Below, one piece after another: positions 498-43,788 of a DNA stretch of 64,000 bases. The stretch lies in assembly GCA_001804815.1 (NCBI GenBank), contig MHBI01000011.1:1670-65669 (forward strand), in the 5' to 3' direction. Each line of letters begins with the position of its first letter. Positions within the stretch are counted from its first letter, which is position 1. The notes under the pieces are model-generated. The model searched no databases. It had not been told where the DNA came from and saw nothing but the letters and a program-made list of their open reading frames with translations. Origin of the DNA: Lentisphaerae bacterium GWF2_50_93. Lineage in GTDB: Bacteria; Verrucomicrobiota; Lentisphaeria; Victivallales; GWF2-50-93. The position numbers and the translations under genes are program-made.

Positions 498-3400
498 CTT
501 CAAACGGTGCAAACGGATCAATAACACCTAGTTCCACTGTTAATTACGGAACAGACACGACTTTCTTTGTAACACCAGATATCAATTATGATGTTGTCGA
601 TGTCCTTGTTGATGGAGTTAGTGTCGGAGCAGTTACAAGCTACGATTTCACGAATGTCACGGCATCTCACACTATTTCCACGACTTTTGCTATTGGGGAA
701 CCACTGGAAAACGGGGTTTCTATTCTTGGAATCGGCGGGGACGAAGGAAGTGTAAGGATTTTCAAGGTCACATTGCCTGCTGGTCAGACTCTGCTTACGG
801 TCGAGACTACCGCAGGATTTTCCGGCGACTGCGACCTGTATATAAGACGCGGTGAGATGCCGACTCTTTCCGACTACGATGCGAAAAGTGCAACTGAAGG
901 GAATGCAGAACTGATAACGATCCATGATCCGGAATCCGGCAACTGGTACGTGATGCTCAATGCGTACAAGGATTTTTCCGGAGTGACACTTGTTGTCACA
1001 TATACCGCTGATGCGCCGGCCAAAGTTCTGTCGCTCGATGCGACACAGGGAGCCTATGCGGATAAGATAAGTCTCACTTGGGCAGGTGTAAGCGGAGCTA
1101 CAAAATATGAAGTCTGGCGTTCAGACGTGAACAACGTCGAACTTGCGGTGAATATCGCAGCCGTCGAAGCTCCAGCTGTGTCTTATGAGGATATGCTGCC
1201 AGCCAAGAGCTCGTTCAAGTGTTATTACTGGGTCAGGGCCCTGAACGCCAGTTATACCGGCGGCTTCAGCGACTATGCATACGGAACGACAATCGCGGAC
1301 AATTCCGTGGTGGACCTGAGGAACGGGGTTGCGAAGACGGGGATCTCCGGATCAATTGGTTCCATGAGGACCTTCAGGCTTAACGTGCCTGCCGGGCAGG
1401 CTGTCCTTGATATAACAGTTTCGGGCGGGACAGGGGACTGCGACATCAACGTAGGGCTCGGGGAGACCGGAAGCAGGAGATATTCGATCCGGAGCACAAC
1501 CTCGGAAAACATACAATATGCAAATCCTGTTGATGGCAACTACTACATCAACATCTATGGAAAGACGGCATATACAGACGTAAAGCTAATGGCTAAATAC
1601 ATGCTGGGCTCACCTGTTGCGCCGACTAGGCTTGCCGCTACGCAAGGGACATTTTCGGACAGGATTGTCCTCACCTGGACGGCGAGCTGCGGGGCGACAA
1701 GCTATGATGTCTACAGGGCACTGAAAGTTGGAACAGCCGTGCCTAAATTCGCCGATGCAGTCAAGATAGCCACAGTAGCCGGCACCGAGTATGAAGATAC
1801 GGACGTGGTCTTCGGAGCCGGAGATGCAACCAATATCTATTATTATTGGCTGAAGGCTGTGAATTCGGCCGGTTCGAGCAAGGAAACAGCAGCTGTGAAG
1901 GGCCATATCATGCCATTGCCACTGGCAGCCGGGACGCTTGCAGCATCCGACGGGACATATTTTGACAAGGTTCGTGTGACCTGGGGCAGGAAGACGAATG
2001 TCACAAGTTATGAGGTTTACAGGACTGAAGGTCCGCTTTTCGCCGGAGAGACGCTTGTCGGCGGAGTTGACGCGAGCAGTCTGGCCTCATACGTGTTTGA
2101 TGATTTCAATGTTCCGCTGAACACACTGCCTGCGACGAAATACTATTACTGGATCAAGGCGATAAACAGTGACAATGATAAGTCAGTGCTCAGCATCAGG
2201 CCTAATTCCGGATATGTCTCGAACAGGGGGCCTTCCAAGGTTATCGCCACAAAGGGAACGCTTGCCGACGGGAAGATAATTGTGACCTGGACAGCCGTAT
2301 CAGGCGCCACATCCTACGATGTCTATAAGGACAGCGAAGCTCCTGAAAATGTACCATCAGCAACTTATGAAGACATGCCGGGGGATACTAATTCCCATAC
2401 GTTCGCCATCAAGGCGATATATGGCGGCTATGAGAGCGCTTTCAGTCCTGTAGCTTCCGGTTATGCGGGAGACGCGCCAAGCACATTAGGTGCTCCGGTC
2501 CTGAAAAGCGCCAGCACGAATCTGTATGAATACGTCCTCATCACCTGGGGAGCGGTTGCGAAGGCCAAGGCATACAGGATTTACAGATCCGGGACAAATG
2601 TATTCCCCAATGACGGAGGGATTGCAGATGTCATAGACAGTCTGACCTATGAAGACCATGTAGGCGCCGGCGTGAAATACTACTACTGGGTAACAGCTGT
2701 GATCGATACTGTGGAAAGCAAGCCTAGCGCATCAAAGACAGGCATGGCTGCAGCGGTACTGGCCGACAGCTTTGCTGATCCGGCAGACTATCCGGACGGC
2801 CAGATGATAGCAGTCGCAGGCGCGGACAAGGGATCATGCACGTATTACTCAATAGTGGTACCGGCCGGCACGACACGTCTTGTAGCGACGCTGTCAGGCG
2901 CAGCTACGGCCGGCGATGACTGTGATATGTATGCGAAGCTGGGATGTTATCCGACAACCGCCTCATATAATGCGAAGGGTGTCGAGAACAGGACAGATGG
3001 AACAGATGAAATACTGGCTGTCAAGAATCCTGCAGCCGGCACATGGTATTTCATGCTGTACGGAGCGGGGATCAGTGGATATACTGGAAGGGATTTGACA
3101 GTCGCCTGCTATTCCGCTGCGAATATTTATCTGACAGTGGTTCCAGCCAACGATATGAATCCTCCGTTCAGGGCGACATTCAAAGGCGTGGTTGTTGATG
3201 CGTCCGGGAAAGGCATACCCGGCCTGGCCATCATGGCAAGGAGTCCGATAACCGGGCTTAGTTCATATCTGATAAAGACCAACGCTTCCGGAGTGTTCAC
3301 GTATTCCGACCTCATCAGCACCGAAGGGGAGCACACATACGACTTCTTCTTCACTGATATGCCTGATACGGGAACGGCAAGCCATACGGTGTTTACAAAG

Positions 3401-4066
3401 AACACAAGCCTGAAAACGGCGGACTTTGACTTCTCGGCCTATCTGAAGGCAGCTCCTGTTGCACTCACAGGCGCTCCGGACGATCTTGCAGGAATGAAGG
3501 CATTCCTCAATACAAGCAACGGCTGGGATGACGCGGCTGTAAGTGCAACTTACACGAGAATGTGGATTGACGAGACGATTGGAAAGGTCCAGAGCGACGA
3601 TGCACTTCTCGGGAAGCTTGACGGCGGACTGTATATGGTATTCTACGGAGTTGAAGGCGCTGGCGCAGGCAATGGTACGGACGCAGTTTCCGGTGTTCCT
3701 GTATCCGGACTGTCACCTGTTCCTTTTGTCGTCCACGTGACGACGTCGAAAAAAGATACCGTACTCGGCAATCTGCTGGACATGGGTATCATTGACGCTT
3801 CGACCAAGGCCGGAATTGACTTGGGAAGAACCGGAGTAATCGCGATTGCCTCCTTGGACAGTGCTGATGCCAACAAGGACATTTCACTGCGCGCATATGA
3901 ACAGCTGAATCTCCTTTCGAGCATTACGGACAAGGACATGTCAGTGGTATTTGTCGAGGACGGTAAATATTCGGATGTCCTCACAAGGAAGTTCACTGTC
4001 ACTATCGGTGACAGGCAGATCAATGTGATTACATCAGCGTTTGCAGCGATTACCCAGGAGGAATAA
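2..4066 (+). CDS. Large secreted/cell-surface multidomain repeat protein (5' end outside window)
   Basis: Frame 2 is open to the window edge. Near-identical 71-aa units (FVKWSDDVMTAARTDANVVADIAVTATFAIDTFTLTYTAGPDGSIAGTSPQTVNH) resemble divergent InlB B-repeat (Flg_new_2-like) domains. Three PPC-like modules carry GDCDLY / GDCDIN / DDCDMY. At least five Fn3-like modules match LTWxxVSGATxYxVYR. TAA stop at 4064-4066 is followed by a terminator. Confidence 0.85.
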   Translation, partial: TDANVVADIAVTATFAIDTFTLTYTAGPDGSIAGTSPQTVNHGASGSLVTATPSANHHFVKWSDDVMTAARTDANVVADIAVTATFAIDTFTLTYTAGPDGSIAGTSPQTVNHAASGSLVTATPSANHHFVKWSDDVMTAARTDANVVADIAVTATFAIDTFTLTSSNGANGSITPSSTVNYGTDTTFFVTPDINYDVVDVLVDGVSVGAVTSYDFTNVTASHTISTTFAIGEPLENGVSILGIGGDEGSVRIFKVTLPAGQTLLTVETTAGFSGDCDLYIRRGEMPTLSDYDAKSATEGNAELITIHDPESGNWYVMLNAYKDFSGVTLVVTYTADAPAKVLSLDATQGAYADKISLTWAGVSGATKYEVWRSDVNNVELAVNIAAVEAPAVSYEDMLPAKSSFKCYYWVRALNASYTGGFSDYAYGTTIADNSVVDLRNGVAKTGISGSIGSMRTFRLNVPAGQAVLDITVSGGTGDCDINVGLGETGSRRYSIRSTTSENIQYANPVDGNYYINIYGKTAYTDVKLMAKYMLGSPVAPTRLAATQGTFSDRIVLTWTASCGATSYDVYRALKVGTAVPKFADAVKIATVAGTEYEDTDVVFGAGDATNIYYYWLKAVNSAGSSKETAAVKGHIMPLPLAAGTLAASDGTYFDKVRVTWGRKTNVTSYEVYRTEGPLFAGETLVGGVDASSLASYVFDDFNVPLNTLPATKYYYWIKAINSDNDKSVLSIRPNSGYVSNRGPSKVIATKGTLADGKIIVTWTAVSGATSYDVYKDSEAPENVPSATYEDMPGDTNSHTFAIKAIYGGYESAFSPVASGYAGDAPSTLGAPVLKSASTNLYEYVLITWGAVAKAKAYRIYRSGTNVFPNDGGIADVIDSLTYEDHVGAGVKYYYWVTAVIDTVESKPSASKTGMAAAVLADSFADPADYPDGQMIAVAGADKGSCTYYSIVVPAGTTRLVATLSGAATAGDDCDMYAKLGCYPTTASYNAKGVENRTDGTDEILAVKNPAAGTWYFMLYGAGISGYTGRDLTVACYSAANIYLTVVPANDMNPPFRATFKGVVVDASGKGIPGLAIMARSPITGLSSYLIKTNASGVFTYSDLISTEGEHTYDFFFTDMPDTGTASHTVFTKNTSLKTADFDFSAYLKAAPVALTGAPDDLAGMKAFLNTSNGWDDAAVSATYTRMWIDETIGKVQSDDALLGKLDGGLYMVFYGVEGAGAGNGTDAVSGVPVSGLSPVPFVVHVTTSKKDTVLGNLLDMGIIDASTKAGIDLGRTGVIAIASLDSADANKDISLRAYEQLNLLSSITDKDMSVVFVEDGKYSDVLTRKFTVTIGDRQINVITSAFAAITQEE

Positions 4067-4093
4067 ATCCTGAAGGTTGATTGAATGAACAAA

Positions 4094-4127
4094 AAGAGGC
4101 CGGTTTTTCCGGCCTCTTTTTCTTTTA
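4094..4127 (+). terminator. Rho-independent terminator of the surface-protein gene
   Basis: GAGGCCGG-TTTTT-CCGGCCTC stem-loop followed by TTTTTCTTTT, 28 nt after the stop codon. Confidence 0.75.
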
Positions 4128-4204
4128 TTGACACCCTGCGCCCACGCGTCGGCTTCATCATGCCGCCCCTTGAGCCTGTCGGACTTAAGGTTTTTCGCTT
4201 GCAG

Positions 4205-4410
4205 CAGTCCTCCTTCGGAGGATCTGAGCGTTAAGTAGGTACGTGCTTTCCTGTCCTGTACCGAGCTTAGTTGAAGTAGCTGTCGAAGGAAGCATGTAGC
4301 ATCTTAATTTAGGAATGGGACAGGCTGAAGCCCGTCCCATGAATTCAAGAATGGTACACCCTAAAGGACGTACCTACTTCAAGAACGCGCAAATCCGCCT
4401 CGGCGGACTG
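4205..4410. other. Long imperfect hairpin, candidate structured RNA or palindromic element in a convergent intergenic region
   Basis: CAGTCC (4205) pairs with GGACTG (4405). A perfect 12-bp pair AAGTAGGTACGT (4233-4244) / ACGTACCTACTT (4368-4379) lies inside. Inner hairpins are CCTCC-TTC-GGAGG and GGGACAGGC-TGAA-GCCCGTCCC. No convincing ORF. Confidence 0.3.
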
Positions 4411-37116: not shown

Positions 37117-37278
37117 AGCTCTTCTTTATTCTGCGGTCGTCTGCCGTCTGCTTACTGGCAACTGGTGGTCACCAACCTCTGTTACCGCCCTTCTAATTAC
37201 TAATCTCGGATTACAATTTTCCCTCGTGCAGCGGCGCAAGAACACAGAGATTATACTCACCACGATGAAACGAAGGGA

Positions 37279-37614
37279 TTATAATTTCAGGCTTTCAAGC
37301 CATTCCGTAAGTAGGGGGATATGGTTTTGCACAGCATCCCACACAATATTATCATCAACGCTATCATATCCATGTATGATTCGGTTGCGCATGCCGATGA
37401 TGCTTCCAATTGAGGGGATTTGACTTCGGAACGATGTGTCTATGCGATCTATCCGACTAAACGCTTCGCCAAGAATTTCAAATTGTCGTTCTACAGCTGA
37501 GCGCAAAAGCAAGCTGGCAGAGTATTCACTCAACGACTTCTCAGCAGTGAACAATGTGATTGCCTTGCATGCCGTCAGGGCATCAAGCAGATACTTTGCC
37601 AGTTCGATCTTCAT
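37279..37614 (-). CDS. hepT: HepT-like (DUF86) RNase toxin
   Basis: 111 aa with the R-x4-H-x-Y motif in GMRNRIIHGYDSVD. It is paired with an upstream nucleotidyltransferase. Confidence 0.8.
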   Translation of the reverse strand: MKIELAKYLLDALTACKAITLFTAEKSLSEYSASLLLRSAVERQFEILGEAFSRIDRIDTSFRSQIPSIGSIIGMRNRIIHGYDSVDDNIVWDAVQNHIPLLTEWLESLKL

Positions 37615-37924
37615 AAATTAAAGCTCTAGACTCATCTACTTTCTTTTGAAAATAAGAATTGCGGATTGATTTTGGGGTTAGCAGATCCACTTCTCTTCCC
37701 AGCAGTCTTTCAAGCTGTGTGGCTAGAGCAAGATAACGATCCAAAAGGCCCAAGCTTGAAGCCGAATTGTCAAATTCGACTATAAAATCTATGTCGCTAT
37801 GAGAGGAGTCAAATCTGCCATCGGAGGCAGAGCCAAAAACCTCCAAACGGTGAATTTGAAGATTTTTACAGATGGTCGCAATTTTAGGTTTGTTGGCAAC
37901 AAGCAAATCTATCATATACAACAT
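37583..37924 (-). CDS. mntA: MntA-like nucleotidyltransferase antitoxin
   Basis: LEVFGSASDGRFDSSHSDIDFIVEF (G-S-x10-D-x-D minimal NTase motif). The start is uncertain (37924, 37915 or 37966). It overlaps hepT by 32 nt. Confidence 0.75.
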   Translation of the reverse strand: MLYMIDLLVANKPKIATICKNLQIHRLEVFGSASDGRFDSSHSDIDFIVEFDNSASSLGLLDRYLALATQLERLLGREVDLLTPKSIRNSYFQKKVDESRALIYEDRTGKVSA

Positions 37925-38060
37925 ACCCGAATTTGTTGAATCATACACATTGGGATACTCTATCATGTATCAACCGTTTCTGCAAGAGGTGCCTGCTAGT
38001 GGCGAAGTATTTTTTCCTTTCTTCGGATTACGGCTTGCCAAACCACTGTCCATCCGATAC

Positions 38061-38091
38061 AGGATCTTCGCCGAGACGGCGAACTCTACAT
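38061..38091 (-). promoter_or_regulatory. Conserved hairpin module (sense: ATGTAGAGTTCGCCGTCTCGGCGAAGATCC), minus-strand copy
   Basis: It is the reverse complement of the modules at 49638-49670 and 55674-55702, between the wza-like stop and the mntA start. Stem TTCGCCG/CGGCGAA, loop TCTC. Confidence 0.6.
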
Positions 38092-38121
38092 TTTTACCGA
38101 CCGACGTCTGTCCTCCGCTGC

Positions 38122-40566
38122 CTACTGTATATCAATCGTGCTGTCCATCGGGACTTCGGGATTGAACCAGAGAAGTCTCTTGCCGTTCAGGATGTTTCCG
38201 GCGTACGTTTTAATCAGGATTTCCCTAGGAGTAAAGCCGTGTGTGTATCCGCCGGCCATATTTACGTAATACATATAATCTTCGCCTTCCTTATACACAT
38301 ACCGGCCTGGCTTGACAACAGAGCCTGAAATGAAAACCCAGGGCTGTATTTCCATAACCTCAATTTCATCGCCGGGCTTCACAACTATATTCTGCGCGCT
38401 GTCATGATTCTCTATTGCTTCATTGATATACACATCTGAAAGCATCCCGTCCCTTTTTAGAACCGCCTTGCCGATCATTACATTATTTTTAAAACCTCCC
38501 GCCCTCTCGACAAGCGATGATAATTTCTCATTATCCATATAGTTATATTTGCCTGGATAGTTGACCTTTCCTGACAATTCGACATCAGCCTCGTTTAAAT
38601 TAAAGTACGGATTCTTTGGGATGATTACCAGATCCTTCTCCTTCAGCAGGAAGAGCCTGTTCTCTTTGGAATTATAGTTCAAAAGTATAGCTTCCTTTTT
38701 CTCAATATCGGCTTCTCTTTTTAATCGCCCGATATCCACTCTTTCGGGATTTGCGGATTCAGTAAATCCTCCAGAGGCTTTTATGAGGTCGGCAATATTC
38801 ATGTTTTCTGTAAACTCATATTTCCCAGGCTTTTTAACTTCACCTCTGATTTCAATATGTTTTTTAGGTATGATCTCGTCTACCGAGTAAATCCTTACGC
38901 TGTCTCCGCTTGACAGCTTTATGCTTGTCTTGTTGCCCAGGACCTCGTAAATATTAAAAGGAATGATCTCAAATTCCCCCAGGCTTTTCTTCCTGAAAAG
39001 GTCAGCTCTCTCCATGTATATCTTCTTGTCCCTGTCCGGATCGTCAAAACCTCCGGCCATGAAAAGTAGATCCTGGAGGGTCATATCCTTGTTGAGCATA
39101 TATTTTCCGGGATTGCTGACAATGCCTGATATGCTGACGAATTTATCCTGCCCCTTCATTTCAAACTGGGAATAGATGATTATCTTGTCCATAGGGTTAA
39201 GAACAAATGGCTTGTCATTAGTATCAGCAAAGTTCAACCTGACGATTTCCTTCGTCAGATCCGCATTAGTACGGAGGATGATTATATTGTCCAGATAAGC
39301 ATCTTTATAGAGTCCGCCGGCCTCTGCAACAAGGTCCTTGAGGGTCGAGCCTTTTTTGTATTCATAGGTCCCAGGCTTTTTTACCCCGCTTCCACTGACA
39401 GTCAGGATGTCTCTGATTTTTTTAATTGGCATCACTGTGAAGCATATAGAATCCCTCGGATATAATTCTACATCTTTGCCGTCAACTAAGTCAATGTCAA
39501 GGAATTGCTCGCCTTTTACAGGATCATATCTTTCTATTTTTACTTTATCCTTGATTGCCTCAACGGAATAGCCTCCGGCGATTTCAAGAAGCTTGTTCAG
39601 GTTTTCATCTTTTTTAAGCTCGTATATGCCGGGTTTGGCGACGGCCCCTTGAAGCGCAACAGTTTTTCCTCTGATCGGTACGTATATGATATCGCCGTCA
39701 TTGAGATACTTGTCCTCTGACTTTAAGTTTCCTTTCAGAAGAAAGCTGTATAGGTCGAAAGTGTTGACTTTTCCGTCTTTCATCTTTCTGATTTCAATGT
39801 TCCTCAAAGACCCTATGGGATTTACACCGCCCCCTTGTTTCAGCGCGTTCATTACTGAGGCCGATGCAGCGTCAAGGTTAATCTCGCCAGGCTTAGCAAC
39901 TTCGCCTGTTACAAACAACTTAACTCCGATGTTCTTCCCGAGCGTTATATCGACTATGGAACTGCCGGAACCGGGATTTTCTGGATTGATGAACGCGGCA
40001 TATGTCTGGCTGAGGGCTTTAAGGATCTTTGCTTTGGCGGTGATGAGTTCCATCCCATGGACGTAGACGCGCCCGACTTTCAGTATGTCAATAAATCCAT
40101 CCTGTTGTATAGGAAGCTTATAATGGAGATTGACGTCACCCCAGATGTCAATTATGATTTCATCACCGGATTTCAAGATATAGTCGCCGAGGATTGCATT
40201 TGACGCACCCTGTGCAGGTCCTCCGGTTTTCAGGAACTCATAGCCAAATTCCTTTAAGGCGCCTTCAGCAGTTATCTTGTCGGTATCAGGAGAATTTGGA
40301 CCGCCTGCAACTTTCGCAGTAGCGCTGCCTGCTGGAACTGCCGCCCCAGTTGTAGAAGCGGAGGCAGTTCCTGGAGCAGTCGCTGTGCCGACCGAAGAAG
40401 AAGCCCCGGGGTTGCTTGATACAGCGGGCGGTGCAACGACAGCTGGAGCGGTCGCAGTTGCCCCGGCAGTTGAAGTTTCCGCTGCAATTACTGCAGCCGC
40501 GATAGCTGCGGTTGTTAAAACCGCAAACACAAGAAATACGATTGTCTTCTTACTGAATATTTTCAT
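38122..40566 (-). CDS. wza: Outer-membrane polysaccharide export protein (Wza/OPX family) with multiple SLBB domains
   Basis: 814 aa. A signal peptide is followed by an Ala/Thr/Ser/Pro-rich linker and a Poly_export-like segment (SGDEIIIDIWGD...IQQDGFIDILKVGRVYVHGMEL). Repeated SLBB-like modules follow (V.I.G.V.KPG.Y). Confidence 0.8.
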   Translation of the reverse strand: MKIFSKKTIVFLVFAVLTTAAIAAAVIAAETSTAGATATAPAVVAPPAVSSNPGASSSVGTATAPGTASASTTGAAVPAGSATAKVAGGPNSPDTDKITAEGALKEFGYEFLKTGGPAQGASNAILGDYILKSGDEIIIDIWGDVNLHYKLPIQQDGFIDILKVGRVYVHGMELITAKAKILKALSQTYAAFINPENPGSGSSIVDITLGKNIGVKLFVTGEVAKPGEINLDAASASVMNALKQGGGVNPIGSLRNIEIRKMKDGKVNTFDLYSFLLKGNLKSEDKYLNDGDIIYVPIRGKTVALQGAVAKPGIYELKKDENLNKLLEIAGGYSVEAIKDKVKIERYDPVKGEQFLDIDLVDGKDVELYPRDSICFTVMPIKKIRDILTVSGSGVKKPGTYEYKKGSTLKDLVAEAGGLYKDAYLDNIIILRTNADLTKEIVRLNFADTNDKPFVLNPMDKIIIYSQFEMKGQDKFVSISGIVSNPGKYMLNKDMTLQDLLFMAGGFDDPDRDKKIYMERADLFRKKSLGEFEIIPFNIYEVLGNKTSIKLSSGDSVRIYSVDEIIPKKHIEIRGEVKKPGKYEFTENMNIADLIKASGGFTESANPERVDIGRLKREADIEKKEAILLNYNSKENRLFLLKEKDLVIIPKNPYFNLNEADVELSGKVNYPGKYNYMDNEKLSSLVERAGGFKNNVMIGKAVLKRDGMLSDVYINEAIENHDSAQNIVVKPGDEIEVMEIQPWVFISGSVVKPGRYVYKEGEDYMYYVNMAGGYTHGFTPREILIKTYAGNILNGKRLLWFNPEVPMDSTIDIQ

Positions 40567-40618
40567 GGGTTATCTCCTTGATGCAAAGTTAAGTCTGAAA
40601 AAATAAAAAAAACACTTG

Positions 40619-40988
40619 TTAACCACTAATCTACACTAAAAAGAGACACTAACAATACATATGCGTTGAATGCTGTTTTTCAAAACAAAAATATCATCCG
40701 ACGCATGGTCTGTTTATAATTAAACTTTCATCCTGGTTAGTGTAAAATCAGTGTGGATTAGTGGTGAAATCTTCAGTTTTCTTTACGGAACGCCGGCACC
40801 CCTGCCGGCATGTTTCTTTTCTTCTTATATAACTATGCCACCAGGTCTCAAGATCCCGGCCACGAAGTGCGTCGGGATTGGTGGCGTTCCATGATTCGCT
40901 GATTACCGACCCCGGATTACCGATTACGCCATCCGTCGTCCGTCCTCCGTCCCCTGCCGACTGCCCACTGCCCACTGCCCACCGATTC
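40619..40988. repeat. Direct repeat copy 1 (~365 bp): palindromic element variant B + hairpin/T-tract + GATTACCG and CCCACTG words
   Basis: Near-identical to 42423-42785 at an offset of 1804 bp. This copy has one extra CCCACTG unit. Confidence 0.9.
40792..40826 (+). terminator. Orphan terminator-like hairpin on the + strand inside the direct repeat (second copy at 42596-42630)
   Basis: GCCGGCA-CCCC-TGCCGGC is followed by ATGTTTCTTTTCTTCTT. There is no + strand CDS upstream. On the - strand no U-run follows the stem. Confidence 0.3.
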
Positions 40989-40996
40989 CCTGCCTC

Positions 40997-42304
40997 TCAC
41001 TCCAGAAGCCATTTCCAAGCCGGGACAGCTCGTATTTTAACGCCTTCACTGCTGAAATATTGTTCTTCATTGCGGGTTACAATGAAGTTTTCCTTGACAC
41101 CGAAATATTTTGCAGTTGAAACCAGAGGGTCAACCTCCCTCTTAAGGGTTTCCTTGTCTGAAATGTCAATACAGACCTGTATGGTGGACGAAGGCCTTCC
41201 GCTGTTCCCGGTAACTATGAAATCCACTTCCTGCCTATGGGACTTCGTCAGATAGTAGTTCAATCTGGAGTGCCTTCTTTTGAGATGGACGAAGACCATG
41301 TTTTCAAAAGCGCGTGAAAGACTTCCATCCCATACAGGACTGTTATGGTTGGCAAGAGCCCAGTCAATACAGTAGTTCTTCTTGCTGTTCCTGTCGATCT
41401 CCTTTTGTGAGGAGCTGTAAATCGGGATCGGAAAGAAAAGCCAGGAATCTTCGGAGTGCTGGAGTAGTTTTAATACGGTATCCCTTCCTATGTGAAAACC
41501 GCATTGCCTGAGATATCCGTATGTGCTCTTATGGGATACTCCCTTCCCCATGCATGAGAGCAGGTACCTGTATAGATGGATGCATTCCCTGGGCTGGGTG
41601 ACACCAAATCTCTGTATCACATCCCTGAGTATCATGGTGTCAAAATATTCCCTCAGCAATTTCGCCTTTGAGCTCTCCTGGGTTTCCGTAAGGGCGGGAA
41701 ACCCTCCCCAGAGAAGATAGCTTTCTAGAAGGGAGTCCAGTCTTGCCTGTCCCACCGTCGAACCGACATCGGCATGAACGCGGTTGAAATCCAGAAATTC
41801 GCGGAAAGAAAGAGGATATATCTCGGTGCCTATTGATTTTCCGCGGAGTTCCTTTGCTGCGTCGTCCCTGAGAAGTTTGGACGAGGAGCCGGTGACGAGC
41901 ACCTTCCAGTTCCTGTTTCTTGAGAGTTCGATAACTGCGTTTTCCCAGCCATCTATCCTATATATCTCATCGAATATGAAAAGGGACGGCGTTTTCATGT
42001 CGAAGCTGGGATTGAGCTTGAGATATGATTTCTGTATGTCTAGAAGATCCTTCGCATTCATGGATGAAAGGACAGGATTGTCAAAGTCCAGGAAGCATAT
42101 GTTCCGTATTGAGGCGACCTGCCGTTGCCTCAGAAATTCATCGGCGACCTGCAGGGCTCTGAAGCTTTTTCCGGCACGCCTCGACCCTATGAGCGAGGAT
42201 ATCATGTTGGGAACGATATCGACCGGATCCAGCCTTGGCACGAATTCGGGAATGCCGTTTTTCCAGAAGTCCTCGAGTTTTCGGCCTATCTCGTTTGAAA
42301 TCAC
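40997..42304 (-). CDS. AAA+ ATPase with DUF4143 (AAA_14 family)
   Basis: 435 aa. Walker A is LIGSRRAGKSF and Walker B is LFIFDEIYRIDGWE. The C-terminal region has the typical WGGFP pattern. Confidence 0.8.
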   Translation of the reverse strand: MISNEIGRKLEDFWKNGIPEFVPRLDPVDIVPNMISSLIGSRRAGKSFRALQVADEFLRQRQVASIRNICFLDFDNPVLSSMNAKDLLDIQKSYLKLNPSFDMKTPSLFIFDEIYRIDGWENAVIELSRNRNWKVLVTGSSSKLLRDDAAKELRGKSIGTEIYPLSFREFLDFNRVHADVGSTVGQARLDSLLESYLLWGGFPALTETQESSKAKLLREYFDTMILRDVIQRFGVTQPRECIHLYRYLLSCMGKGVSHKSTYGYLRQCGFHIGRDTVLKLLQHSEDSWLFFPIPIYSSSQKEIDRNSKKNYCIDWALANHNSPVWDGSLSRAFENMVFVHLKRRHSRLNYYLTKSHRQEVDFIVTGNSGRPSSTIQVCIDISDKETLKREVDPLVSTAKYFGVKENFIVTRNEEQYFSSEGVKIRAVPAWKWLLE

Positions 42305-42422
42305 TTTTACTCCACAATTATGACTTGTTACAAGGCATAATATGATATAATTGACACTTTTAGCAAGGCATAAATTAAAAAAGTAACTATACTAAACACG
42401 TGGAAAACATGAAAAAGATCTT

Positions 42423-42785
42423 TTAACCACTAACGTCCACTAAAAAGAGACACTAACAGTACATATGCGTTGAATGCTATTTTTCAAAACAAAAATATCA
42501 TCCGACGCATGGTCTGTTTATAATTAAACTTTCATCCTGGTTAGTGTAAAATTAGTGTGGATTAGTGGTGAAGTCTTCAGTTTTCTTTACGGAACGCCGG
42601 CACCCCTGCCGGCATGTTTCTTTTCTTCTTATATAACTATGCCACCAGGTCTCAAGATCCCGGCCACGAAGTGCGTCGGGATTGGTGGCGTTCCATGATT
42701 CGCTGATTACCGACCCCGGATTACCGATTACGCCATCCGTCGTCCGTCCTCCGTCCCCTGCCGGCTGCCCACTGCCCACTGATTC
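42423..42785. repeat. Direct repeat copy 2 (~365 bp)
   Basis: See copy 1. Only scattered substitutions were seen (e.g. CTAATCTAC vs CTAACGTCC, AATCAGTG vs AATTAGTG). Confidence 0.9.
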
Positions 42786-42892
42786 ATGACATGCAGGCAA
42801 GCTTCGCCCCGTCAATTATGCGGATTGCTAACTCATAAAATAGCTCTAAAATGGGGATTTTACCACCTGAATTATAAAACTCCAGAATGCAA

Positions 42893-43255
42893 ATCCATTA
42901 CATGCAAACGCTTATTCACCACTAACGTACACTAAAAAGAGACACTAACGGTACGTATTAATTAAACTATATCGTTTACTTAATCCGTACTAATAGAGGT
43001 AATTTCAAAACTCAAGGAATGGTCATGGCAAGCATGACCCTCCACGCCCGAAACGGGCGTAAGAATGGAGGGACGCGGTTTTGCCTTCGGCAAGCATCGC
43101 TTCGCTAAGCTAAGCCGCGTCCGAAGTTTTGAAATTACCTCAATAATCAAATTCACAGCAAGGCCTGGTTTATAAATTCCGAGTCATAAAAACTCCAGCA
43201 CTCCATAACTTTAGAACTTTAGAACTCCCCTTCAGTGTCCATTAGTGGTGAAGTC
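42893..43255. repeat. Palindromic element copy with an expanded/interrupted apex
   Basis: The left part is AATCCATTACATGCAAACGCTTATTCACCACTAACGTACACTAAAAAGAGACACTAACG. The right part is ...ATTCACAGCAAGG...CAGTGTCCATTAGTGGTGAAGTC. The left apex half is replaced by new sequence that includes the 146-bp insert. Confidence 0.75.
42996..43141. repeat. 146-bp insert bounded by perfect 17-bp inverted repeats, highly structured (MITE-like element or ncRNA)
   Basis: GAGGTAATTTCAAAACT ... AGTTTTGAAATTACCTC. Internal helices are GGTCATG/CATGACC, CCCTCCA/TGGAGGG enclosing ACGCCCG-AAA-CGGGCGT, and GACGCGG/CCGCGTC enclosing TTGCC-TTC-GGCAA. Confidence 0.6.
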
Positions 43256-43398: not shown

Positions 43399-43520
43399 TC
43401 TGCCAGCCACTTTCCGATCTTTCAGGAGTATTTCCCTTGATTTTACCTAGTGCCTGATTATCTTCAAGGTGCGAGACAATTGCAAAAACGGATCTTTCGT
43501 TGAAATATATGATCTATGCT

Positions 43521-43738
43521 GTGCCGCCACCCTGCGGGGGCTGGAAAATTTATTTAATGAATTATCATCCCCACGCTTACGCATGAGGCTACAATATGAC
43601 ACCCTCTGTGAGGGTTGAATATAAAAAAGGCATTTTTAAATAGCCTCCGCAGGAGGTGAAATCCTGTAGCCCAAAGGCGTAAGCCTTGGGAGATATGGAT
43701 TATATAAAAGACAACAAGCCCCCGCAGGGCGGCGACAC
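43521..43738. repeat. 218-bp element bounded by 22-bp inverted repeats, internally structured
   Basis: GTGCCGCCACCCTGCGGGGGCT ... AGCCCCCGCAGGGCGGCGACAC (20/22 complementary). Internal helices are GGCTACA/TGTAGCC enclosing ACCCTC-TGT-GAGGGT and CCTCC-GCA-GGAGG, then CCCAAAGGC-GTAA-GCCTTGGG. Confidence 0.6.
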
Positions 43739-43788
43739 TTAAAGAAAAATACAGATATAAAGTGATAGGAGTTGACAAATAAGTCTTT

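Follow-up and report, generated by a model that had tools for sequence, protein, structure and literature searches.

Insertion with long target duplication as the probable explanation for a DUF4143 ATPase gene flanked by direct repeats in a Victivallales polysaccharide locus

In a polysaccharide locus of Lentisphaerae bacterium GWF2_50_93, an uncultured Victivallales (Lentisphaerota) bacterium, a single gene for an AAA_14/DUF4143 ATPase lies between two nearly identical copies of an intergenic spacer, which raises the question of how the gene and its repeats came to be arranged in this way. The window analyzed is a stretch of 64,000 nucleotides, corresponding to positions 1670-65669 of contig C11 in the genome of this bacterium (hereafter G000; 6.4-Mb assembly, 120 contigs). 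The arrangement is best explained by insertion of the ATPase gene accompanied by a long duplication of its target, a reading that we hold to be probable, and the rival explanations taken together account for about a third of the probability.

Formal alignment of both copies showed that they are, as the first-pass annotation had described them, direct repeats at an offset of 1804 bp. The copy R1 (40613-40988, + strand, 376 nt) adjoins a polysaccharide export gene, while the copy R2 (42417-42785, + strand, 369 nt) adjoins a unique sequence, U, that begins at 42786. Identity by blastn was 96.0% over 378 nt with the ragged left edge included. Within 40619-40988, the copies differ by eight substitutions (at 40630, 40631, 40633, 40655, 40675, 40749, 40769, and 40960) and one 7-nt heptamer indel, a divergence of about 2.2%, and thus the scattered substitutions and the single CCCACTG unit noticed earlier were both recovered. 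The differences are confined to the edges, and a core of 190 nt (40770-40959) is identical. Each copy is a mosaic of four kinds of module. The first is a palindromic element of variant B (40619-40768 in R1 and 42423-42572 in R2, + strand), with three CACTAA-type boxes per arm and a hairpin as its core. It is followed by a hairpin of the repetitive extragenic palindromic (REP) type, GCCGGCA-CCCC-TGCCGGC (40792-40809 and 42596-42613, + strand), which had been taken for a terminator, and by a second REP-type palindrome with the nested hairpin GCCACCA..GATCCCG..CGGGAT..TGGTGGC (40837-40885 and 42641-42689, + strand), the two forming a pair that resembles a bacterial interspersed mosaic element (BIME). 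The right end consists of GATTACCG words and a tract of CCCACTG-type heptamers closed by GATTC (40957-40988, + strand), and the corresponding tract of R2 (42761-42785, + strand) has one unit fewer. Among Pfam-supported genes, the ATPase gene is indeed the only one between the copies.

The full composite occurs exactly twice in the G000 assembly, and all other matches to it are partial modules of 72-97% identity and at most 181 nt. Direct repeats between the 700-nt flanks of every open reading frame of at least 200 amino acids in G000 were scored (3551 reading frames; a simple in-house scoring), and the ATPase gene of the window ranked first for the strength of its flanking repeat. It could be argued that the gene landed by chance between two pre-existing copies of common intergenic elements. 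The spacer is built of dispersed modules, namely about 27 palindromic elements, 107 REP hairpins and tracts of words and heptamers, and a second DUF4143 gene (C92:102460-103710) lies between two palindromic elements of a subfamily with 87-92% identity. The complete composite, however, is present only as this pair, with its modules in the same order and 98% identity compared with 79% or less for other full palindromic copies, and the closest related genome has one copy between the same flanks. A chance landing is therefore very unlikely.

That genome, G005, belongs to the same genus and to a different species, and is the sole comparator with a syntenic locus. On its contig C81, the order is the export gene (85% nucleotide identity), one variant-B palindromic element, the same REP hairpin, another hairpin module, heptamers, U, and a Wzy-like gene (94% nucleotide identity). 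The sequence after the heptamers is ATTCATGACATGCAGG..., which in the window follows R2, and U (ATTCATGACATGCAGGCAAGC..., 42786-42905, + strand) is thus joined directly to a single spacer without an ATPase gene. The surplus of G000 over this locus is exactly one spacer copy plus 1428 nt. Since the single spacer of G005 is joined to the same flanks, both outer junctions, that is, export gene/R1 and R2/U, are ancestral. The resident gene downstream of the insertion is the Wza-like export gene (38122-40566, - strand), and R1 preserves its native upstream spacer. The first-pass annotation had suggested a search in relatives for an allele that has a single repeat copy and lacks the ATPase; such an allele is present in the closest related species, and the single copy between two conserved flanks, by which an empty site is recognized (Furuta et al., 2010), was found in a comparator that is another species.

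The G005 spacer also bears on the age of the repeats. Compared with R, it is 86-88% identical over the first 100 nt or so, and the left 200 nt (approximately) align at 86-90%. Because R1 and R2 differ from each other by only 2.2%, the duplication, or the last homogenization of the copies, postdates the split of the two species. Moreover, R1 and R2 share lineage-specific modules that are absent from G005. G005 has its ortholog of the ATPase (84% nucleotide and 88% amino acid identity) on a different contig, surrounded by genes missing from G000. When 17 genomes of the family were searched for the export gene, only G005 had it, so that no outgroup was available. The U junction had no match when JGI metagenome contigs were scanned with exact 24-mers, and exact-protein look-ups matched only assemblies of the same population, which are uninformative on the empty-site allele. 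An 8-nt match, TGTCATGA, between the 3′ end of the G005 ATPase gene and the R2/U junction was dropped as it does not fit the present R1 junction.

The ATPase gene (40997-42304, - strand) encodes 435 amino acids, a length similar to that of its homologs, with both domains present at full length and an intact P-loop (Walker A GSRRAGKS). Profile searches gave matches to PF13173 (8e-25), PF13635 (2e-12), and the PADLOC model PDLC04787 of PDC-S01 (9.4e-90). PDC-S01 was proposed as a candidate single-gene defense system because it lies embedded in other systems (Payne et al., bioRxiv 10.1101/2024.01.29.577857). It has been reported to rank fourth in frequency among the defense candidates of bacteria and archaea, as an ATPase-PD-(D/E)XK fusion that was transferred many times from one domain of life to another (PMC12988326), and DUF4143 itself has been classed as PD-(D/E)XK (PMC3424549). 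By its PDC-S01 match, the gene of the window is a candidate anti-phage gene. Only 8 nt (40989-40996) separate its stop codon from R1. On the other side lies a promoter/operator region (42305-42381, - strand) with a sigma-70-like promoter, TTGCTA-18-TATTAT at 42366 to 42337, and palindromic TTATGCCTTG boxes as a putative operator. This region is conserved in all orthologs, and locus homology ends there; the filler between it and R2 (42382-42416, no strand assigned) has no relative elsewhere in the genome. The insert of 1428 nt thus holds one Pfam-supported gene. The PF00589 and PF01797 profiles had no match on contig C11, and DDE transposases were not searched for.

Comparison with other genomes revealed that promoter and gene move as one unit. 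Outside the genus, identity to the next relatives falls to about 57%, and these come from many phyla, while orthologs of 78-89% nucleotide identity are found in the metagenome contigs L083 and L085-L087 and in G005. These orthologs share with the window only the coding sequence and 70-100 nt upstream, the other flanking DNA being unrelated, and the unit was found in at least five unrelated contexts among close orthologs. No conserved ends or inverted repeats of the unit were detected beyond the promoter/operator across eight repeat-flanked loci. Two further observations concern the borders of this gene. The promoter/operator region of about 100 nt was found alone, as an 83% match close to the end of a contig, in a genome from a different family (G113:C12:9590-9691). 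In addition, two metagenome contigs of 99% identity differ by a replaced segment that starts 35 nt past the ATPase stop codon (L086 3155-4051 compared with L087 1585-3289), which is another variable joint beside the gene.

The ortholog on L086 also lies between direct repeats, in this case an unrelated 54-mer, and for that reason three screens of the family were made. The first covered 76 loci of ATPase homologs from many phyla and revealed direct repeats in eight of them (seven non-redundant), with lengths of 32-155 nt and a spacing of 1.74-2.09 kb. Inverted repeats and flanks paired across loci, used as controls, gave 0/76 each; among neighboring genes, 4/74 also scored, and two of these four are themselves AAA_14/DUF4143 or ATPase_2 genes. 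In the second screen, covering the whole G000 genome at a score of at least 40, flanking repeats were found for three of 13 DUF4143 genes compared with 23 of 3538 other genes (Fisher p = 9.5e-5). The third, made at the same score on 100 loci around PF13635 matches in genomes of the Victivallales order, gave 11/95 compared with 3/211 for neighboring genes (p = 2.5e-4), and 9/95 compared with 1/211 when the score was raised to at least 60. The repeats of its 16 positive cases are 29-211 nt long and 89-100% identical, with a spacing of 1.28-2.04 kb, and their sequences are mutually unrelated. The counts of these screens include related genomes and come from the simple in-house scoring.

The scar therefore recurs across the family, and in all six cases tested, the repeats are local duplications. 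Searched in their own genomes, two of the six have exactly two copies and one has three local copies, while in the remaining three the other copies are weaker and partial, the flanking pair alone being full-length and nearly identical, as is the case for R. In several cases, the duplicated sequence takes in the 3′ coding end of the resident gene next to it. The orthologous ATPases of two genomes (G174 and G178, 89% nucleotide identity) have different repeats at different loci, and the same holds for the window gene and its L086 ortholog. An attempt to find empty sites within the genus for two further loci (L248 and L174) met flanks that were on different contigs or had diverged.

Several loci with repeats around genes were recorded during these screens. 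At L191 (635-4160, G115:C372), the last 211 nt of a convergent resident gene are present three times, with 91-94% identity, and separate a Bro-N-domain gene and a DUF4143 ATPase gene, which suggests two successive insertions at one target. In G000 (C12:528-4056), two unrelated DUF4143 genes in tandem (24% identical) are each followed by the same 66-nt sequence (98.5% identical and otherwise unique), and then by a 26-nt partial third copy, giving an array of the form T-gene-T-gene-t. At L258 (G137:C46, flanks of 3054-4277), the 45-nt direct repeat resembles the 3′ end of a tRNA gene (GGTCGGGATGAGAAGATTCGAACTTCCGACC), a classic mark of site-specific integration, although only the ATPase gene lies between the copies. 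A second long target duplication in G000 has a cargo other than an ATPase: on C111 (36871-38969), a gene for a FAD-type oxidoreductase of 442 amino acids (37197-38525) lies between direct repeats of 350 nt and 91% identity, and the repeated sequence covers the 3′ coding end of the gene upstream. Among all 3551 genes of G000, 26 direct and four inverted flank repeats reached a score of at least 40. Two candidates were discarded. On C19, the two 300-bp repeats that enclose a PIN toxin-antitoxin pair are copies of a multicopy miniature inverted-repeat transposable element (MITE) and not a local duplication, and the palindromic elements around the C92 ATPase gene are not a specific pair, since one of them is closer to a copy 41 kb away.

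In the explanation that we favor, a unit of 1.43 kb, comprising the ATPase gene, its own promoter/operator and some filler, would have been inserted in the spacer upstream of the wza-like gene. The whole spacer of about 370 bp would have been duplicated with the insertion to give R2-ATPase-R1, in which both ancestral junctions, export gene/spacer and spacer/U, survive. We infer that the duplication took place at the moment of insertion, and the candidate steps are the filling-in of staggered breaks, template switching in replication or repair, and the joining of a fragment to two sister copies; the ATPase’s own PD-(D/E)XK nuclease may or may not take part. The first-pass annotation had proposed a gene-plus-spacer cassette that was inserted or duplicated by recombination between mosaic spacers. 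Insertion with duplication is supported by the single-copy allele of G005, while an origin by recombination between mosaic spacers was not demonstrated. Since the composite is found nowhere else, and since members of the family in other phyla use unique, non-mosaic targets, target duplication at insertion is preferred to an exchange between pre-existing repeats. Once formed, the repeats could recombine with deletion of the gene, release of a circle or amplification, and could convert each other, which would fit a fully identical core of 190 nt with all differences at its edges. The earlier suggestion that they provide a substrate for loss of the ATPase holds, since RecA-mediated loss could obviously proceed between two repeats of 370 nt that are about 98% identical. 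The many contexts of the ATPase, the family pattern and the lineage-specific modules shared by R1 and R2 point to insertion in the G000 lineage. It may be speculated that the insertion was tolerated since the export gene keeps its native upstream region.

Other results speak against this explanation. Only the left 200 nt (approximately) of R align with the G005 spacer, the right half being replaced. The comparison is made with a single locus of another species, and an insertion in G000 as opposed to a precise loss in G005 is not polarized by an outgroup. Each module of R is dispersed in G000, even though the composite has two copies, and two of the three G000 cases in the genome-wide screen involve repeat families (the palindromic element on C92 and a hairpin-bearing 66-mer on C12). 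In other genomes, 2-440 nt of unrelated sequence separate the unit from the repeats, and no defined ends of an element were found. The differences between R1 and R2 are unevenly spread (P = 0.026), which fits gene conversion and weakens any dating. Finally, all assemblies of the G000 population were built from short reads.

This last point raises the question of an assembly artifact, in which the true state would be an empty site together with a separate 1.8-kb circle or another ATPase locus, mis-threaded through the 190-nt core. The same gene order was found in two assemblies of the same population, the ENA scaffold L069 and GCA_003516325.1 (L070). The identical core is longer than typical k-mers; the UBA scaffold L070 has an NN gap inside the R2 core, and the short k-mer contigs L071-L073 break inside the identical cores, although such breaks are also expected of a true repeat. 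On the other hand, two separate scaffolds span both repeats, the single-nucleotide polymorphisms specific to each copy stay linked to the flank of that copy, fragments of R are not found at the end of any other contig, and a one-gene circle of 1.8 kb would have no replication function. An artifact is accordingly given very little probability.

In L069, R2 alleles are present at two R1 positions. Together with the uneven spread of the differences, this points to gene conversion between the copies, and the divergence of 2.2% is therefore not a clock. A history of concerted evolution could also be read from these data, in which the ATPase gene had long stood between two independently built mosaic spacers that were later homogenized by module-anchored gene conversion, G005 having lost the gene or never had it. 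Besides the alleles of L069, it would account for the position of the differences at both edges of R around the identical core. Furthermore, the left arm of R2 (AACGTCCAC) resembles that of the neighboring element 7 (AACGTACAC), while the R1 arm matches G005 and element 4, and a palindromic element stands upstream of every gene in these loci. Such conversion, however, would need to span four unrelated modules over 370 nt, and no other pair of spacers in G000 has been homogenized like R1 and R2. Members of the family in other genomes lie between duplicates of unique sequence, some of it coding, which excludes an independent origin of those repeats. Concerted evolution is thus regarded as unlikely, and insertion with target duplication remains the preferred reading.

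The bracketing of genes by palindromic elements also calls to mind a site-specific cassette system, in which a trans-acting recombinase would use these elements or the repeats as att- or attC-like sites. In the glycan loci, the elements bracket single genes or small selfish cassettes (toxin-antitoxin pairs and ATPases) with a fixed polarity, the loci L191 and C12 are arrays of the form T-gene-T-gene-T, and the L258 repeat has its likeness to a tRNA 3′ end. The repeats nevertheless differ in sequence and length at every locus, and the orthologs in G005 and in the metagenomes lack palindromic elements. No tyrosine recombinase (PF00589) was found on C11 or near the clusters on C92 and C53, and the palindromic element lies 5′ of genes, upstream of their start codons, unlike attC. 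An identity with integrons and attC sites was rejected for the last two reasons, the element not being 3′ of the reading frame, and a cassette system in the wider sense appears most improbable.

The first-pass annotation had also raised the possibility of a + strand small RNA that would start in the palindromic element and end at the GCCGGCA hairpin and its T-tract. A 7-pair hairpin is indeed followed by a T-rich run on the + strand in both copies of R, and the R1 element folds at -70.1 kcal/mol on the + strand compared with -62.5 kcal/mol on the minus strand. This strand asymmetry was dropped as an argument, being inconsistent between copies. The hairpin proved to belong to a REP-type family with 107 copies, in which ATCGGTGG and not a T-tract usually forms the right flank, and the T-tract is degraded at the orthologous site of G005. 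Other copies of the palindromic element lack the hairpin, no promoter-like site was found before it on the + strand, and an Rfam search gave no match at the gathering threshold nor at E ≤ 1. The small RNA was therefore not borne out and is considered hardly credible.

The families that supply the modules have distinct distributions in G000. The palindromic element, 150 nt long, has about 27 copies that are confined to glycan loci on C11, C92, C53, C96, and C99, where they are aligned with the direction of the genes at 17-150 nt upstream of start codons. The 107 copies of the GCCGGCA palindrome are spread over 34 contigs with conserved flanks and form clustered, BIME-like arrays of alternating orientation on C36, C52, and C1. 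A gene for a Y1 transposase similar to REP-associated tyrosine transposases (RAYT) on C9 (88816-89043, within the region 88327-89339) has four GCCGGCA-type REPs upstream and three inverted REPs downstream, and this transposase is the likely driver of the family.

Other mobile sequences were observed in the same locus. The next palindromic element (42915-43252) holds in its apex a palindromic insert of about 150 nt (42996-43148). This insert is matched by a copy of 100% identity at G000:C71:129681-129828 and by copies of 97-99% identity on C88, and because of these near-identical copies, it is taken as a recently active MITE. An element of about 225 nt bounded by inverted repeats (43517-43745), upstream of the Wzy-like gene, belongs to a dispersed family with many copies on both strands in G000, G001, G002, G005, G007, and other genomes of the genus. 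Palindromic elements in tandem without a gene between them are found on C92 of G000 (141826-145052), as a pair and as a triplet before a PDDEXK_3 gene and a radical-SAM gene, and likewise in the window at 42423-43252; these may be emptied cassette positions. A HEPN/MNT toxin-antitoxin pair (37279-37966) lies between the stop codon of the export gene and the next palindromic element and is absent from the syntenic locus of G005 (L009 6344-6614). It is a second cassette-sized difference in the locus, without a flanking duplication.

The window offers a clear case together with an empty-site comparator, although one scar of this type, taken alone, belongs to the ordinary dynamics of genomes. The novelty lies in a mobility signature for an uncharacterized and very abundant ATPase-nuclease family, of which 10-20% of the members bear the same scar, that is, a locus-specific long direct repeat on both sides. 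This links the family with the view of ‘selfish restriction-modification’ held by Kobayashi and colleagues, makes the flanking repeat a practical marker of recent insertions, and predicts RecA-dependent loss, circles and amplification via the repeats, and insertion linked to breaks. The capsule locus of G000 would be a sink for such cassettes, the insertion having left the native upstream region of the export gene intact. A bolder proposal, which we put forward tentatively and consider doubtful, is that the AAA_14/DUF4143 (PDC-S01) genes represent a so far undescribed kind of autonomous selfish element. Its ATPase-nuclease would produce staggered breaks, or take advantage of them, with an offset of tens to hundreds of bases, and the gene would be copied into these breaks. 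If true, this would account for the unit that runs from promoter to stop codon, for target duplications that are long and variable, for the T-gene-T-gene-T arrays and for the embedding habit, and the rank of the family as the fourth most common ‘defense’ gene would in part reflect mobility.

Three known systems resemble parts of this locus. The REP/BIME sequences and their RAYT transposases (Ton-Hoang et al., 2012; PMC3333891) share with G000 the short palindromes in about 100 copies, the alternating clusters and the inverted arrangement around a Y1 transposase gene. The G000 sequence, however, is unrelated to enterobacterial REPs, and in R the REP pair is only a passenger of the duplicated spacer. 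Integron cassettes and cis-mobilizable elements are similar in that single genes are bounded by repeats, arrays are split by the same repeat, and toxin-antitoxin and defense-type cargo is common, but the loci described here have no integrase and no conserved site, and the repeats are copies of the target sequence. The embedded PDC-S01 genes (bioRxiv 10.1101/2024.01.29.577857; PMC12988326) belong to the same protein family by hidden Markov model (E 9.4e-90), and they too sit nested inside other loci and transfer widely. No insertion signature is given in those papers, and the gene of the window, with a putative defense activity, lies in a polysaccharide locus and not in a defense operon.

The closest likeness is to what the group of Kobayashi named insertion with long target duplication, a pattern known from restriction-modification genes (Nobusato et al., 2000; Furuta, Abe and Kobayashi, 2010, PMC2853133). 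There, the repeats are variable and locus-specific, from 46 bp up to 417 of 423 bp, and a tie to double-strand breakage and amplification through the repeats was proposed (PMC2853133). In both cases, long and locus-specific direct repeats (46 to about 420 bp there and 29-376 bp here) enclose a nuclease-type unit, here of candidate defense function, that has no transposase or integrase. The empty site has one copy of the repeat, such repeats are commoner than around average genes, and they can drive loss or amplification. By the features used in that work, the window has repeats of 376 and 369 nt, where more than 30 bp is asked (Furuta et al., 2010), an insert below 20 kb, no mobility genes by the PF00589 and PF01797 profiles, and an empty-site alignment, with the caveats that the comparator is another species and that the target consists of dispersed modules. 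The systems differ in that the cargo is here a single AAA_14/DUF4143 ATPase gene with a PD-(D/E)XK-type domain instead of an R plus M pair, the host is a member of the Victivallales, the duplicated target is a REP/BIME-like mosaic spacer, and the empty site is in another species and not in a strain of the same species. Compared with the known phenomenon, the cargo family, the host and the family-level statistics are new.

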